Positions 4,014 through 42,629 of a DNA stretch of 64,000 nt are shown piece after piece. Below the pieces are notes generated by a model, which did not search any database, was not told where the DNA came from, and saw only the letters and a list, made by a program, of their open reading frames with translations. The DNA is taken from the NCBI GenBank assembly GCA_013426185.1, contig CP058602.1, positions 399,123-463,122 on the forward strand, given 5' to 3'. The DNA comes from Candidatus Woesebacteria bacterium (GTDB taxonomy: Bacteria; Patescibacteriota; Microgenomatia; UBA8517). A program made the position numbers and the translations under genes. The number at the start of each line of letters is the position of its first letter. Position 1 is the first letter of the stretch.

Positions 4014-4639
4014 AACCCAATATTTCTAAATAAGTTATAAACTCTATCTTTTGCAACTTGTTGTGCACCAGGATCTCTAAAATTATTTAAAGAAAAGTTT
4101 ATTATATGCCACCACCGCATTTTCTCCTCATCGGGTAAAGAGGAAAAATTATTTACAAGCAATCTTACATCTTTAAAATCTTTTTCACGAGGCGGTATTT
4201 CTCCTTTATTTGCTAATTTTTGGACTAAAATAATTGCGGGGTGGACTATTAATACTCCATGATCCTCACGCTCTATCTCAACTGCGCTAGACACTAGAAA
4301 ACCATCCTCGAACGATAAACCATTCCAAAAAGTATTAGGCCTTACAACATCAATCCTCCTAAAATGTAAATCTGTATCCAACCACCCATTTACAACCACA
4401 ATATCTATATCTCTATGATACCGACTCTTTCTACCAATAAAAAAATCCATCGCCAACCCTGAGGCTAAAAGGTAATTAATTCTCCCCTCTGAAGAACGTT
4501 GAGGGAATTTTGATATCAATTTGAAAAAACCCTCAAATGTTCCCCCTTTCAAAAGCATTCCTAAAGACAGTCTTCTCAAATAACTACTAAATTCTTCTAA
4601 ACTAAAGCCCTTTCCTCGAAAAACTTCTAATTCTTTCAT
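4010..4639 (-). CDS. Pol-beta-superfamily nucleotidyltransferase domain protein
   Basis: 209 aa, GS...D.D core (SGLAMDFFIGRKSRYHRDIDIVV). Confidence 0.6.
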   Translation of the reverse strand: MKELEVFRGKGFSLEEFSSYLRRLSLGMLLKGGTFEGFFKLISKFPQRSSEGRINYLLASGLAMDFFIGRKSRYHRDIDIVVVNGWLDTDLHFRRIDVVRPNTFWNGLSFEDGFLVSSAVEIEREDHGVLIVHPAIILVQKLANKGEIPPREKDFKDVRLLVNNFSSLPDEEKMRWWHIINFSLNNFRDPGAQQVAKDRVYNLFRNIGL

Positions 4640-5484: not shown

Positions 5485-6488
5485 TTTTTTGATATTTTAC
5501 AGAGCGTTGTTATTTTTTTCAAAAAAATTACAATATGTTTTTTCTGAAGAACCAAAACTAGTAATATCATAGTATAATCTCCTGTGCTTAGAAGTACCGA
5601 GACTGCTATATACATGGGTAACCAGACATAATAAAAATCAGATAGAGGAAACTCATTTAAAGAAAAAATATTAATAAATCGCCTACTATGAGGGGAAAAT
5701 AGATAGACCAAGATCCAAAAAATTAAATAAACAAGAAATAGAATCTTCATGTTAATATTTTTAACCAAAAAAGAAAAGAATAAAAGAAGCAACACTTCTG
5801 GCAAATATAAGATCTTAATAAGCTTTTGGCTAAATTTCACATCTTTAACAGTGGTTAAAGTTTTAACACCTGAACCTAGATCACTAGAAAAATCTTCTAT
5901 TTGGTGCATCAACATAGCTCTCAACCCCAAAACGAAAAGTGCAACCGAAAAAAGATAACCCTCAGTTTTATTGTAATCTAAAACAGAAAACACCAACAAA
6001 ACAGGCAGAGTCCTTTGGATCAAAGAGCCAACAACTATATCAAGAAAAGGCTTTTCCTTAAATCTCACTGGCGGAGAAGAATAAAAAACTACCAAAAAAA
6101 ACATTATTACCCACCAAAACATTATTTTTAAAACAAAACCTCCAAAAAACCACCAAAAAATAGAGGATAAAATAAAAAACAAAACCGAAGTTAAAAAAAT
6201 ATGATAATCTTTAATATTAGCACTTGTGCGAATTTTGCCAGCTTTTAAATCTACAAATTTATCCCAATAATCGTTAAGGATAGAGGCAAAAGAACCATAA
6301 AGCACAAAAAATGCAAGAAGAATCCAAAATACTATTCCAAAACCTGGCGTCAGTTCTTTGAGACCTCCTTTTTCTATAATAACTAGACCAATTGAAACAA
6401 TAAAAAAAATTAACTTTGTATTTGACCAAGAATGCCAACGAATAAACTTATTCAAGAATTCAAGTCTACCCGCTAATGATCCGAACAT
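5469..6488 (-). CDS. UbiA-family prenyltransferase (polytopic membrane protein)
   Basis: 339 aa, about 8 TM helices, NDYWDKFVD matches the UbiA NDxxDxxxD motif. Confidence 0.7.
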   Translation of the reverse strand: MFGSLAGRLEFLNKFIRWHSWSNTKLIFFIVSIGLVIIEKGGLKELTPGFGIVFWILLAFFVLYGSFASILNDYWDKFVDLKAGKIRTSANIKDYHIFLTSVLFFILSSIFWWFFGGFVLKIMFWWVIMFFLVVFYSSPPVRFKEKPFLDIVVGSLIQRTLPVLLVFSVLDYNKTEGYLFSVALFVLGLRAMLMHQIEDFSSDLGSGVKTLTTVKDVKFSQKLIKILYLPEVLLLLFFSFLVKNINMKILFLVYLIFWILVYLFSPHSRRFINIFSLNEFPLSDFYYVWLPMYIAVSVLLSTGDYTMILLVLVLQKKHIVIFLKKITTLCKISKKCNYL

Positions 6489-15061: not shown

Positions 15062-15320
15062 GGCTCCTCTTGTTTTTGGGTGAGCCTCGATTAATCTCCT
15101 AAACTCAAATTAGAGAATTAAGAAACTAATCAAGGCTCACCCAGATTGGTGTGGGATAATCTTCTTTCTTGCTGTGTTGTTAAAGTGCCCTTCTTTACTT
15201 AAAGAATAGAAGGCTTATCTTCCTGCTTTAAGTAAAGAAGAATTAAATTTTTAAATAAATTCTCTAGTTTTAACCAACTAACAAAAGCTAGTTGGCTAAA
15301 AAAGAGACACAGCAAGAAAG
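15062..15320. repeat. island repeat copy 2 (modules 1+2), immediately upstream of CDS 13815-15053
   Basis: Near-identical to 18647-18905. Contains a 9-bp stem gggtgagcc/ggctcaccc, a 15-bp perfect stem cttctttacttaaag/ctttaagtaaagaag, and the hairpin ccaacta..tagttgg. Flanked by cttgctgtgt/acacagcaag inverted repeats. Confidence 0.85.
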
Positions 15321-18646: not shown

Positions 18647-18905
18647 GGCTCCTCTTGTTTTTGGGTGAGCCTCGATTAATCTCCTAAACTCAAATCTAGA
18701 GAATTAAGAAACTAATCAAGGCTCACCCAGATTGGTGTGGGATAATCTTCTTTCTTGCTGTGTTGTTAAAGTGCCCTTCTTTACTTAAAGAATAGAAGGC
18801 TTATCTTCCTGCTTTAAGTAAAGAAGAATTAAATTTTTAGATAAATTCTCCAGTTTTAACCAACTAACAAAAGCTAGTTGGCTAAAAAAGAGACACAGCA
18901 AGAAA
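18647..18905. repeat. island repeat copy 3 (modules 1+2), immediately upstream of the VirB4-like ATPase gene
   Basis: Differs from copy 2 by only a few substitutions. Confidence 0.85.
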
Positions 18906-40036: not shown

Positions 40037-40168
40037 GCCAATATCCTAGCCACTGACAGAGGCGCATTTTGCTCGGTTGCGCTAGGAACGAACCCTACTC
40101 AGCCATAATCAGAGTAAAATCACAAGGTTCTAGCTTGTCGAATGGCTTGCACTGAGCTTGCCGAAGTG

Positions 40169-40239
40169 CTGCCCAGCAGGGATTCGAACCCCAATTTTCG
40201 CGTCCAGAGCGCGACGTCCTACCATTAGACGACCGGGCA
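40169..40239 (-). tRNA. tRNA-Gln (anticodon CUG)
   Basis: 71 nt. U1-A72 acceptor pair with G73 discriminator (tRNA-Gln identity set). D-arm GTCT/GGAC, anticodon loop CUCUGGA, T-arm TGGGG-TTCGAAT-CCCTG. No encoded CCA. Confidence 0.75.
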
Positions 40240-40500
40240 AAGTTTTAAAGAATCTCTAAGCATTAGCTTCAGAGCTTTCTTGCCTTTTGCTGTTTTAAGA
40301 TATTTTTCTCTCCTTTGTGCATCTTCTTTGCTCAAATATGCTTCGTAAAACACCAACCTTAGACCTTTTCTATTTTTTGTCAACTTCACCCCACCACTTT
40401 TATGCTTCCTAATTCTTTGTCTCAAATCCCCAGAATAACCTATATAAAAACGCCGACCATCAAACAAGACATAAACATAGTAGAATTCTCTAAGCACCAA
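40225..40500 (-). CDS. GIY-YIG nuclease family protein (small, YhbQ/UPF0213-like)
   Basis: 91 aa; YVYVL...GRRFYIGYSGDLRQRIRKH GIY-YIG core. The 3' end overlaps tRNA-Gln by ~15 nt. Confidence 0.7.
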   Translation of the reverse strand: MVLREFYYVYVLFDGRRFYIGYSGDLRQRIRKHKSGGVKLTKNRKGLRLVFYEAYLSKEDAQRREKYLKTAKGKKALKLMLRDSLKLCPVV

Positions 40501-40578
40501 TATATATTATAGCGTCCACCCCAAACCAGAATAAATTCGGTTTAGGGTGCCATGAATCAAACGTTGTTTTGGTTCATG

Positions 40579-40642
40579 GCAGAGCGCGACGTCCTACCAT
40601 GTCGTCGCTTCGCTCCTTTTGCTTCGCACAGACGACCGGGCA
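40579..40642 (-). pseudogene. tRNA-Gln 5'-half pseudo-copy with a 29-nt insertion in the D-loop
   Basis: TTGCCCGGTCGTCT-[29 nt]-ATGGTAGGACGTCGCGCTCTG matches tRNA-Gln positions 1-36. It then diverges into a hairpin ccatgaa...ttcatgg. Confidence 0.6.
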
Positions 40643-40649
40643 ACGATAA

Positions 40650-41060
40650 ACAGGTAAAAGGCAAGAGTTAAAAGTTAAAAGAATTCGGATTTCAGCCATC
40701 GGCTGTCAGCTGTCAGTTCCGAGTCCTATCTTAATTCATAAATCAAAAATCAATATTCTATGATTAAAAATAAAAGAGCAATAGAAATCAAATAAAACTA
40801 TTTAATTTTAGCACAAATCAGATTCAAAATCGATAAAAAATAGAGCTTAGGCTTGATAGCAAAAAACAACAACCAACATTCAACAACCAACAATCGAAAA
40901 CTGCCACAGGACTTACAAAATCCTCAGCTCCGATACTGTAGTAAATTCAGATATAAACAGAGGCAGATCAAAAGATAAGTTGTTTCTTTAGAAATTCAAT
41001 AGTATTGGAACAGTTCTCTACTCTCGTACTTAAAAATCCATATTAAAAATAAAATAAAAT
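40650..41060. repeat. AT-rich low-complexity non-coding spacer
   Basis: No ORF. Contains cagccatcggctgtcagctgtcag (related to the catcggctatcgg units at 23565-23620) and caacaaccaaca-type runs. Confidence 0.6.
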
Positions 41061-42629
41061 TTAAGAGACAATCTCTTCTTTCTTCGCTTTAATAAAATGA
41101 ATCCATTCTTCAACAACCTCAAGAAAAACTTTAAGTGGCGCCTCGATAATAAAATCAAGAATAAAACTTAAGACATTAATACTTGCAATTTTTGATGATA
41201 GCCATTGCCCTACTTTAATAACAGGCAAGAAAATAAAATCTTTAAAAGAAGAAAGCAAAGATTCTCTGTCATCCTTCTCTAAACTAAAATCCTTGGCAAT
41301 GCCGCGCACACGATAAGCAAAAAATGAAACCACCGACAAGAAAAACAAAAATATAATTTGACTAACAGGGTTAAAACCAAGTTTTGTCAAAATCCAAATC
41401 ACCCCGCCAAAAGTAATGCCAAACATCACAAGATAAAAAATGCCAAAAATCTCACTTATTTTTTGACCTTTAGAAAGTGAAGAGATAATTTTTACTTCAG
41501 GTTTATCTTGAGAATAAAAATAATCATTAATCACTTCTACCATCCTTTCGGTATTTTCCTCATCGGGTAAATCTATATCAAGATTGAGAAGGAACATCAA
41601 AAGAGGTGGAAAAGAAAGATTAATTCCAAGCGCTAGATAATTCACCTTCCCAAAGATAATGTCTATTGGCAGCTCAAGCAAAATCCCAATCACCATTTTG
41701 GTCAAAAAAATATAAACAATGCTTCTTAAAGAAGCGCGTGAGAGCTTGTCTTTTGTTTCGCGATAAAGATCTTCAAGAAGAGATCTAACGGTCTCCTCTA
41801 GCCTATCTTTATTTGAGACCAAATCAACAAAATCTTGTTGATAAGTATTCACCATTTCGCGAATAATATTAAAAGGGGGCGAAAGAAAAACAACTTCTCT
41901 TTTTAGGACAGAAGCAAGCGGATAATTAAGCTGAGATTCAATATACGAAAGATTTTGAAAGAAATCGCCTCTTAATTTTTCAGCGTCAGCTTGATTATTA
42001 AACCAGGCAGGAAAGAGCGTCTTTAATAACTTATACGCTATCAAGCCGTCACTGTTTTTACCAAATCCGCGCTCAACAGCAATGTAAATTTGAATCGATT
42101 TTGTTTTGGAATCAGCTTCATCAAAATCAAGTCTTCTAGAAAGCGTTTCAAAAACATAATTGATAATAACCTGCGGCAGAGGATCAAAAGCAAGCTTTTC
42201 TTCTATCTCACAAGAGGCAATCTCCAAAACTCTCTTTGACAAGCCGTTGACACCCTCGGCTCCCGAAAGCAAGGACCTGTATTTCTCAATTATCACAGCT
42301 ATTTCCTCAACTAACCCTGCAGATACAGATTCGGGCTTTAAATACCTTGCCCAAAGAAGCTCTTTTACAAGAAGACGGGCTAACTTTTCGCTTTTCTGGT
42401 TTAAAAAAAGACGCCTTTTCAAAATTCTTTCGATTGCCGCCTGACGAATCAGATGCTCCGCTCTAAACTCGACTGCATTCCTTGCCGACTCATAAATTAC
42501 CGCCAAAGTAGAAGCAGTTTTACTAATTGCAAGCGGTTCCTCAACTTTCTTCTGGGAAAGCTTTAGTTTAAAAGCTAAAGAAAGTTCTTTTTTAAATTCT
42601 TCTGTTTGTAAGTTAAGCCCGTCTCTCAT
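41061..42629 (-). CDS. hypothetical protein with C-terminal TM helices
   Basis: 522 aa, helical N-terminal domain, 3-4 C-terminal TM helices. Confidence 0.5.
   Translation of the reverse strand: MRDGLNLQTEEFKKELSLAFKLKLSQKKVEEPLAISKTASTLAVIYESARNAVEFRAEHLIRQAAIERILKRRLFLNQKSEKLARLLVKELLWARYLKPESVSAGLVEEIAVIIEKYRSLLSGAEGVNGLSKRVLEIASCEIEEKLAFDPLPQVIINYVFETLSRRLDFDEADSKTKSIQIYIAVERGFGKNSDGLIAYKLLKTLFPAWFNNQADAEKLRGDFFQNLSYIESQLNYPLASVLKREVVFLSPPFNIIREMVNTYQQDFVDLVSNKDRLEETVRSLLEDLYRETKDKLSRASLRSIVYIFLTKMVIGILLELPIDIIFGKVNYLALGINLSFPPLLMFLLNLDIDLPDEENTERMVEVINDYFYSQDKPEVKIISSLSKGQKISEIFGIFYLVMFGITFGGVIWILTKLGFNPVSQIIFLFFLSVVSFFAYRVRGIAKDFSLEKDDRESLLSSFKDFIFLPVIKVGQWLSSKIASINVLSFILDFIIEAPLKVFLEVVEEWIHFIKAKKEEIVS

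Follow-up and report, generated by a model that had tools for sequence, protein, structure and literature searches.

Why should a gene for a small nuclease lie between an intact tRNA gene and a broken copy of the same tRNA gene? This question is raised by a 64,000-nt stretch of the genome of a Candidatus Woesebacteria bacterium (GCA_013426185.1, contig CP058602.1, positions 399,123 to 463,122), hereafter called the window. In it, a 91-aa GIY-YIG nuclease gene is bracketed by a tRNA-Gln(CUG) gene and, upstream on the same strand, by part of the 5' half of that gene. The original prediction took the 5' partial duplication for a footprint of insertion or homing. This view is supported by recurrence of the layout at other loci, by the linkage of the nuclease family to tRNA genes and by the patchy state of the locus in relatives. 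In our reading, the locus probably represents a selfish cassette, composed of a double hairpin (H1-H2) and the gene of a single-domain GIY-YIG protein of about 90 aa, nested in the tRNA-Gln transcription unit. Any specific mechanism of transfer is less certain than this. That the layout recurs at the tRNA genes of many uncultivated bacteria suggests a selfish element, so far undescribed, with tRNA genes as its target.

The tRNA-Gln locus of the window

ARAGORN called tRNA-Gln(CUG) at 40168-40239 on the minus strand, and Rfam (RF00005, 57.1 bits) placed it at 40169-40239, in agreement with the predicted intact gene. Two exact repeats of this tRNA were found about 400 nt upstream, collinear and on the same strand. 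When the tRNA was aligned with the whole window by blastn-short, the repeats had E values of 8e-7 and 0.012 and were the only significant additional matches; no further tRNA-Gln fragment comparable to them was found in the 64 kb. The features of the locus, in the direction of transcription, were as follows; other loci are cited by their L numbers.

40630-40643, minus strand: partial copy, part 1 (TTGCCCGGTCGTCT), a flanking T and tRNA positions 1-13; 14 nt, 100% identical to 40227-40240
40601-40629, minus strand: D-loop insert of the partial copy (GTGCGAAGCAAAAGGAGCGAAGCGACGAC), 29 nt replacing one D-loop A
40580-40600, minus strand: partial copy, part 2, tRNA positions 15-36, ending on the last anticodon base; 21 nt, 100% identical to 40205-40225
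40548-40581, minus strand: hairpin H1, inverted repeat TGCCATGAAcCAAA / TTTGaTTCATGGCA, 14-nt arms with one mismatch, 6-nt loop
40519-40547, minus strand: hairpin H2, from folding, CCCTAAACC / GGTTTGGGG, 11-nt loop, sequence-related to H1
40512-40516, minus strand: GACGC, tRNA positions 37-41, resuming after the hairpins and TG
40501-40511, minus strand: AT-rich spacer TATAATATATA from the tRNA remnant to the start of the open reading frame (ORF); TATAAT lies at the same relative place in L007
40225-40500, minus strand: GIY-YIG ORF, 91 aa, TTG/GTG start, with its last 15 nt, including the stop codon, inside the tRNA
40169-40239, minus strand: intact tRNA-Gln(CUG), CCA not encoded

The exact repeats of 14 and 21 nt bore out the proposed upstream 5' copy with its 29-nt D-loop insertion. 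The 3' end of this insert, GACGAC, pairs with GTCGTC of the tRNA. Beyond position 36, the copy had been thought to diverge into an unrelated hairpin. A hairpin is indeed present there, but it is the first of two, and tRNA positions 37-41 resume after them. The element starts with CCATG at 40579, and the 63-nt hairpin module (40517-40579) sits exactly between tRNA positions 36 and 37 of the upstream copy. The copy stops at position 41, and is followed by 11 AT-rich bases, the ORF and the complete tRNA. As expected, the GIY-YIG ORF, which gave a Pfam match, was the sole gene between the two copies. It fills 276 of the about 340 intervening nt and overlaps the tRNA by 15 nt, with its stop codon within the D loop. 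No second GIY-YIG gene was found in the 64-kb window. Two points go beyond the earlier reading: the hairpins are conserved and precisely inserted, and the 29-nt insert is an older, separate footprint. Mobility may, as the original prediction proposed, be driven by the nuclease.

Five assemblies of this species, independent of one another (one from NCBI, GCA_020725745.1, three from Logan and one from ENA), agreed on the arrangement, which ruled out an assembly artefact. The three independent Logan assemblies (L002-L004) break at the same base, their position 1, corresponding to about 40698 and lying 198 nt upstream of the ORF. The break adjoins a low-complexity run, ctgacagctgacagc, and its being shared suggests a repeat or a population variant.

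Recurrence of the split-tRNA layout

The window is one instance of a widespread architecture. We compared each tRNA lying directly after a homologous ORF with the DNA upstream of that ORF, and most such loci have an upstream 5' copy. The order of tRNA positions 1 to N, two hairpins, the next 4-7 nt of the tRNA, a spacer, the GIY-YIG gene and the whole tRNA was seen at about ten independent loci, involving tRNA-Gln, Ser, Arg and Glu. In the following list, a slash separates the positions or bases on either side of a breakpoint.

Window: tRNA-Gln (CUG), breakpoint 36/37, resumed sequence GACGC
L118-L127 (Moranbacteria): tRNA-Gln (CUG), breakpoint 34/35, resumed sequence (T)GGTCCC
L109: tRNA-Gln (CUG), breakpoint about 21/22, ORF decayed
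L074: tRNA-Ser (CGA), breakpoint 35/36, resumed sequence AAAAC(TG)
L054, L079, L128-L132: tRNA-Ser (GGA), T loop, hairpins between GGTTCG and AATCC
L088: tRNA-Arg (UCU), T loop, hairpins between GGTTCG and ATTCC
L031, L042: tRNA-Glu (CUC), D loop, hairpins between ATCGTC and TAGT

The breakpoints (12/13, 21/22, 34-36, 57/58 and 73/74) all fall in tRNA loops or in the single-stranded 3' end. For the sub-family with GC-rich hairpins, the site is the universal T-loop sequence GGTTCG/AA or an anticodon arm resembling it (L118, L074). The upstream copies begin at tRNA +1, with 0-8 further upstream nt in common, and are often 100% identical to the tRNA (over 71 nt in L054 and L128, 56 nt in L088 and 35 nt in the window). 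The upstream copy in L079 is a different tRNA-Ser(GGA), with its anticodon stem paired internally and 86% identity to the downstream tRNA. The tRNA homology ends 4-8 nt from the hairpin base, and the resumption of 4-7 tRNA nt after the hairpins has a chance probability of about 1e-3 per locus. As in the window, the ORF runs into the tRNA in L011, L031, L088 and L118.

A mirror layout was also observed, in which a whole tRNA is followed by the hairpins, the ORF and a repeat of the tRNA 3' end (13 nt in L030, 26-32 nt in L027). Tandem arrays of partial copies occurred in L009, L013, L035, L043 and L114. Separately, L027 (1290-1800) carries a second, different GIY-YIG ORF between tRNA-Asn and the 3'-end copy, followed by a truncated copy of the query family.

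The hairpin module

In another 26 loci, the cassette lies after a complete tRNA or transfer-messenger RNA (tmRNA), and the first hairpin takes in the discriminator/CCA. The hairpin begins within the last 2-7 nt of the preceding complete tRNA in 25 of these. A strict motif, CCNYG-N4 ... N4-CRNGG, was present at the discriminator/CCA in 21 of the 26 loci, compared with one of 32 other tRNAs in the same loci. That sole motif-bearing control, the tRNA-Ser GCU of L035 (2817-2975), carries a complete H1+H2 with no ORF behind it; further upstream in L035, a fragment of a tRNA T arm is fused to the truncated beginning of an ORF. H1 of the window (CCATGAACC ... GATTCATGG) is of the same CCNYG...CRNGG type, fused to anticodon base 36 and not to the discriminator. 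Equivalent second hairpins were found in L007, L018, L022, L035 and others, usually related in sequence to the first.

The arms of the hairpins also covaried. Among 31 hairpins, there were 53 double-change cells compared with 21.4 in shuffles (score 0.40 versus 0.15), and none of 500 shuffles scored as high. The set was picked for being hairpins, so that its paired fraction is inflated by design, and the compensatory changes are the informative part. Overall, the hairpins belong to the element as a conserved module whose insertion is precise. No copies of H1 were found elsewhere in the 64-kb window, and thus there is no expansion of the REP or NTS kind at this scale. Rfam searches of the window (gathering threshold), of the locus (E <= 10) and of 11 related loci (E <= 1) gave only tRNA, tmRNA and unrelated matches, and no family among them covered the hairpins. 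The GCGAAGC(AAAA) motif of the 29-nt insert recurs in hairpin loops of other cassettes, for example those of L006 and L037.

Two further observations concern hairpins. For one sub-group of homologues (L083, L089, L094 and L102-L107), no tRNA was detected, and a lone hairpin, one arm of which holds the conserved (C)ACCCCGT, lies immediately ahead of the start codon, at a distance of about 30 nt. It could represent another kind of cognate hairpin. Elsewhere in the window, two identical hairpins at 15190-15240 and 18776-18826, 3.6 kb apart, have 15-nt arms (CTTCTTTACTTAAAG / CTTTAAGTAAAGAAG) and a 21-nt loop; they may belong to a repeated element or mark the duplicated end of a gene.

The orthologous locus in relatives

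Relatives were located through the neighbouring gene of a 522-aa protein (window 41061-42629), the orthologues of which are 67-82% identical. A tRNA-Gln(CUG) gene lies downstream of this gene in all relatives found. The locus did not have one uniform arrangement: the site was empty in one relative and in different states in three others. In the empty site (L112, CP055308.1), the tRNA lies 115 nt after the gene, with neither a pseudo-copy nor a GIY-YIG gene. L110 (AP024680.1) has no ORF, and carries, about 45 nt upstream of the tRNA, a pseudo-copy with the D-loop insert of the window (GTGCGAAGCAAGAGGAGTGATAGCGACGAC) and a diverged anticodon arm. L114 has two tandem copies of this unit with a 123-nt period, again with no ORF. 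L109 contains tRNA positions 1-21, a GC-rich double hairpin of a type different from that of the window, a frameshifted GIY-YIG pseudogene and the intact tRNA. The intact cassette was found at this locus in the window and L001-5. The cassette is thus polymorphic for presence and absence at a fixed tRNA-Gln site, a trait that free-standing homing endonucleases would show.

One strain variant was informative. In L005 (300-420), a 37-nt deletion removes pseudo-tRNA positions ~20-36 together with H1 and alters the top of H2. The 29-nt insert is kept, the ORF and the tRNA are identical, and the sequence downstream of the tRNA is unrelated to the window. A near-identical 30-nt insert occupies the same D-loop position in the ORF-less pseudo-copies of L110 and L114. 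Because it is common to these ORF-less relatives and also present in L005, the 29-nt insert is older than the GIY-YIG cassette and separate from it. Taken together, the tRNA-Gln gene has been struck at least three separate times, and the cassette is gained, is lost and decays.

The nuclease and its linkage to tRNA genes

The 91-aa protein matched Pfam PF01541 (GIY-YIG) above the cut-off, with an E value of 2.3e-12; it gave no match to a second Pfam domain, an NCBIfam model or a PHROG. In an alignment of 42 homologues, Y8/Y10, Y19, G21, R29, H33 and E53 were invariant or nearly so, and E65 was conserved in at least 90%. A profile of these homologues found the UPF0213 proteins BH0048 (1zg2, E = 7e-11) and EF2693 (1ywl, E = 1e-7) in the PDB. 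The same search gave chains of Slx1, a structure-specific nuclease, at E = 6e-5 to 1e-3 and the catalytic domain of I-TevI at E = 4e-3. By sequence, the protein therefore belongs to the single-domain GIY-YIG proteins of the UPF0213 / Slx1-like branch. Codon 40 (window 40380-40382) is Leu (TTG) in the window; it is Ser (TCG) in the four other assemblies, and most family members have Ser. S40L of the window copy could be a weakening mutation.

More than 130 homologues were found at E <= 1e-3, and the profile of a related sub-family found at least 7,800 at E <= 1e-10. They belong mostly to Patescibacteria (the candidate phyla radiation), with some in Lentisphaerota, Verrucomicrobiota, Planctomycetota, Nitrospirota and others. 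Searches of phage, plasmid and IMG/VR collections gave three, one and two weak matches, respectively, the single plasmid match coming from a tblastn search of 72,556 plasmids with the window protein. The plasmid result is an indirect hint that the window protein is not close to the proteobacterial homologues. In some loci, homologues lie in tandem within 1-2 kb, three in L073 (1119-2743) and two each in L087 and L108, with no tRNA detected.

We fetched 23 genome loci and 80 metagenome loci of the family and scanned them for tRNAs, taking the tRNA density elsewhere in the same loci as the expectation. Of 89 usable loci, 26 had a same-strand tRNA or tmRNA whose end lay no more than 300 nt upstream of the ORF, where about 1% was expected (P ~1e-30). 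Of 98 loci, 9 had a same-strand tRNA that began between -20 and +60 nt relative to the end of the ORF, compared with an expected ~0.27% (P ~9e-12). The linked genes encode tRNA-Gln, Ser, Glu, Met, Arg, Gly, Asn, Trp and Ala, as well as tmRNA (identified by Rfam in L006 and by ARAGORN in L038).

Two candidates were discarded during this survey. The identical proteins P0320 and P0316, each found on many contigs, did not mark multiple insertion sites but the same locus in many samples, and a palindrome in L053 considered as a cassette scar was identified by ARAGORN as the anticodon arm of a normal tRNA-Ala(GGC). Two loci had further features nearby. Group II intron domains (4427-4501 and 6091-6261) lie about 1.2 kb downstream of the cassette-bearing tRNA-Glu in L010. 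In the Moranbacteria loci L118-L127 (1818-3267), the 3' side of the cassette-bearing tRNA-Gln directly adjoins a gene on the other strand that encodes a large serine recombinase with Resolvase/Recombinase Pfam domains, and the contigs end at varying points inside this gene.

Expression context and a possible life cycle

The expression of the cassette is likely to depend on the following feature.

40805-40815, minus strand: extended -10 promoter-like motif TGTGCTAAAAT, 565 nt upstream of the intact tRNA

The motif TTTGTGnTAAAAT was found upstream of tRNA-Gln in all five related genomes. Its distance to the tRNA is 29 nt in the empty L112, 159 nt in L110, 276 nt in L114, 343 nt in L109 and 565 nt in the window. 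TGTGCTAAAAT is probably the native tRNA-Gln promoter. No terminator-like site was found between the -10-like motif and the tRNA, and the TATAAT ahead of the ORF received no support as a promoter from a simple scan. The intact tRNA would thus be transcribed through the pseudo-copy, the hairpins and the ORF, making the ORF a passenger of the strong tRNA promoter.

These features can be arranged into a possible life cycle. The cassette would enter a tRNA gene, and duplication of the 5' part would leave a functional tRNA. Cassette and tRNA would then be co-transcribed from the old tRNA promoter, and the tRNA released by RNase P and 3' processing. The nuclease, which lacks a DNA-binding domain, may recognise its own hairpins in the single-stranded, heavily transcribed tRNA gene. 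A single-strand-specific enzyme at tRNA genes is plausible because these genes are hot spots of single-stranded DNA (ssDNA) in vivo (PMC10948833). The nick would fall a few nt from the hairpins, as with the Ssn nucleases at their hairpin repeats. Repair of the break might use the tRNA, the only homology common to the genomes, with homologous joining on one side and end-joining or microhomology on the other. Such repair would copy the cassette into cassette-free tRNA genes, producing partial duplications, tandem arrays and ORF-less remnants. Whether a 5' copy arises upstream or a 3' copy downstream would depend on which side of the donor cassette holds the complete tRNA, and only products retaining one whole tRNA would survive. 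Natural transformation as the route between cells would be a guess.

More tentatively still, the loci might represent an undescribed class of mobile element, in which a double hairpin and its cognate minimal GIY-YIG enzyme acting on ssDNA insert at tRNA or tmRNA loops or the 3' end, rebuild the tRNA by partial duplication and use the tRNA promoter. The tRNA fragments would then serve as portable homology arms that cross species and phylum boundaries. We regard this wider proposal as quite possible, although we would not rely on it.

Several points weigh against a selfish cassette of this kind. The steps beyond the anatomy (cleavage, transcription and transfer) are inferred from the sequence. 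The intact downstream tRNA keeps an uninterrupted target, which a classical homing enzyme acting on double-stranded DNA (dsDNA) would cut; simple dsDNA cleavage of the tRNA sequence is disfavoured because this uninterrupted copy adjoins the ORF. GIY-YIG enzymes are hydrolases, and thus the nuclease alone does not explain exact hairpin insertion without target duplication. No simple one-step insertion accounts for the 4-7 tRNA nt that separate the hairpins from the ORF. Three such models were considered, namely target-site duplication, a single crossover of the Campbell type and joint insertion of hairpins and ORF as a block, and each needed an extra assumption to explain these nt. The Ssn recognition motif (SRM) is absent at the window and related loci. 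The family is nearly absent from phage, plasmid and IMG/VR collections, leaving no evident transfer vector. An adjoining tRNA was detectable in only about 35-40% of the sampled family members. Finally, the stem mismatches are balanced, with 23 G:T and 25 A:C, a count that fits a role of the hairpins in DNA as well as one in RNA.

Alternative explanations

The cassette might act at the RNA level. The 5' tRNA fragment and H1-H2 would then be a functional leader of a tRNA-mRNA co-transcript, serving processing, stability or translation control, or the GIY-YIG protein would act on tRNA precursors, and the arrangement would be kept for regulation. The position of the hairpins in a leader between a conserved promoter motif and the ORF, with no terminator, fits this idea, as does the sequestration of the tRNA discriminator/CCA by a hairpin in the canonical loci. 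An RNase P cut at tRNA +1 would take off the stop codon of the ORF, which hints at coupling, and a prokaryotic Slx1-like GIY-YIG domain fused to a TrmH tRNA methylase has been noted (PMC1564403). The 29/30-nt insert and the pseudo-copy are, moreover, conserved in relatives whose neighbour protein is only 67-72% identical. However, the ORF and tRNA of L005 are identical to those of the window even though H1 and part of the pseudo-copy have gone, and the empty site of L112 has the same tRNA without any part of the cassette. The stems show no excess of G:U over A:C, C.A mismatches recur, and no Rfam family matched. Binding of RNA by SsnA does not occur (PMC11893778), and regulation would leave the variable breakpoints, the tandem arrays and the decayed ORFs unexplained. 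We therefore consider a function at the RNA level unlikely.

Alternatively, the hairpin pair itself might be the mobile unit, a tiny non-autonomous element resembling a double-hairpin miniature inverted-repeat transposable element, comparable to REP with RAYT or NTS with Ssn, that inserts in the single-stranded loops of tRNA genes. The GIY-YIG protein would be a linked and possibly domesticated nuclease, and the tRNA duplications would be secondary products of repair. This is suggested by exact insertion without target duplication at 12/13, 21/22, 34-36, 57/58 and 73/74. It also fits the ORF-less H1+H2 after the second tRNA in L035 and the ORF-less pseudo-copies with inserts in L110, L114 and L043. 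The site preference points the same way: the T-loop subfamily is always at GGTTCG/AATCC, and anticodon arms mimicking it are struck too (GGGTTCT/GGTCCC in L118, TCTCG/AAAAC in L074). On the other side, H1 has no other copy in the 64 kb, hairpins and ORF are nearly always adjacent, and a hydrolytic nuclease alone is incapable of strand transfer. There is, in our judgement, only a small chance that the hairpins move independently in this way.

A group I intron in the anticodon loop was also considered and rejected. Rfam gave no intron match even at E <= 10, and the downstream sequence is a whole tRNA and not a 3' exon (positions 37-76).

The locus could also be the remnant of an integrase-mediated island or prophage at a tRNA-Gln attachment site, with the GIY-YIG gene as leftover cargo. 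Genes for tRNA are classical integration sites, and a large serine recombinase adjoins the cassette-bearing tRNA-Gln in L118-127. However, the genes neighbouring the window locus encode the 522-aa protein, a PP2C-like protein and HisRS, with no integrase or phage gene nearby. It is the 5' portion that is duplicated, up to a point within a loop, the insert measures only about 400 nt, the layout recurs with the GIY-YIG gene and nothing else, and the family is almost absent from phage and plasmid collections. An island remnant is thus very improbable.

Chance juxtaposition of a decayed ordinary tandem tRNA duplication and an unrelated housekeeping GIY-YIG gene, although tandem tRNA genes are common and two different tRNA-Ser genes flank the ORF in L008 and L035, can hardly account for a split layout seen some ten times over, in which the hairpins mark the exact breakpoint and 4-7 tRNA nt resume (~1e-3 per locus), for the tRNA-linkage and hairpin-motif statistics, or for the patchy orthologous locus.

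Comparison with known systems

The selfish cassette that we favour has its closest functional analogue, as far as comparison allows, in the hairpin-guided Ssn nucleases that act on ssDNA, the defining motif of which is missing here. SsnA is a single-domain GIY-YIG protein of 94 aa that binds its NTS/SRM hairpin repeat only as ssDNA and cuts a few nt upstream (PMC11893778). The ssn genes are typically flanked by their own hairpins, and the hairpin specificities of homologues co-vary (Chenal et al. 2025, PMC11893778). The systems share a single GIY-YIG domain of about 90-95 aa without a DNA-binding domain, a similar catalytic spacing (Y6/Y17/E64 in SsnA, Y8/Y19/E65 in the window protein) and a gene directly beside cognate hairpin-forming inverted repeats of 20-50 nt that differ between homologues. 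The end of the tRNA remnant, 4-8 nt from the hairpin base, is on the scale of the SsnA cut, a few nt from the hairpin. In contrast, the SRM, HGTCWYN(0-2)YYVSBRHN(0-5)WNVSBRGN(0-2)RNCYNB, did not occur on either strand within 400 nt of the gene in 103 loci or in the window. The Ssn gene has a hairpin on each side, whereas both hairpins here are upstream of the gene, lie within a tRNA gene and have no amplified copies in the rest of the 64-kb window. The association with tRNA genes and their duplication are found here, and PMC11893778 makes no mention of tRNA. The closest solved relatives of the window protein are UPF0213 proteins, and its likeness to Ssn is by published description.

SegB is a GIY-YIG homing endonuclease in the tRNA gene cluster of phage T4 (PMC2330249), and has been reported to promote segmental amplification of tRNA loci (PMC13096335). 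It resembles the present cassettes in being encoded by a free-standing GIY-YIG gene between tRNA genes and in its selfish inheritance by break repair with co-conversion of flanks, and its amplification parallels the tandem partial duplications of L114, L043, L009 and L035. However, the free-standing Seg proteins of T-even phages have about 200 or more aa with DNA-binding modules, and cut the dsDNA of the cassette-free allele. No DNA-binding module is joined to the window nuclease, which has 91 aa, no second Pfam domain and no PHROG match. Here the catalytic domain stands alone, the genes are chromosomal (Patescibacteria and other phyla), the double hairpin is conserved and the tRNA gene itself is split.

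The UPF0213 proteins BH0048 and EF2693, the best matches among solved structures, have the same size and a single domain. They differ in that their PDB entries (1zg2, 1ywl) are named only 'hypothetical UPF0213 protein', with no function or rule of genomic context, and the literature searched did not connect UPF0213 proteins with tRNA genes and hairpins. Integrative elements that target tRNA genes likewise insert in the tRNA gene and keep the tRNA intact by a direct repeat, but they depend on a tyrosine or serine recombinase, and it is normally the 3' part that they duplicate. The window has no recombinase, a duplicated 5' part, a breakpoint in a loop and an insert of ~400 nt. Neither an integrase in the insert nor a repeat of the tRNA 3' end was found, and the GIY-YIG ORF is the only gene of the insert. 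IS200/IS605 elements and REP/RAYT systems also have subterminal hairpins that are recognised in ssDNA, a short specific sequence adjoining, no target duplication and ORF-less hairpin derivatives. They rely, however, on HUH/Y1 transposases with covalent intermediates, which are beyond a GIY-YIG hydrolase, and both hairpins here lie on one side.

Implications

Judged by sequence, the cassette would belong to a known kind, the hairpin-associated or free-standing selfish GIY-YIG nucleases, with the nesting in tRNA genes and the partial tRNA duplication as the newly seen part. In the literature searched, the coverage of which was incomplete, we found no account of small GIY-YIG genes that are linked to tRNA genes and accompanied by partial tRNA duplications. 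If our reading is true, the recently discovered minimal GIY-YIG nucleases guided by hairpins would be tied to a concrete way of selfish propagation. The reading would also make tRNA genes, through their loops and 3' end when single-stranded, the target of a nuclease-based element, besides integrases and group I introns. Natural pairs of hairpins and nucleases with different specificities would be of practical interest for ssDNA tools. For annotation, caution is needed, since a tRNA may be transcribed through a nuclease gene. The reading would further explain many of the tRNA fragments, tandem partial repeats and 'hypothetical GIY-YIG' genes found in Patescibacteria and other uncultivated phyla.

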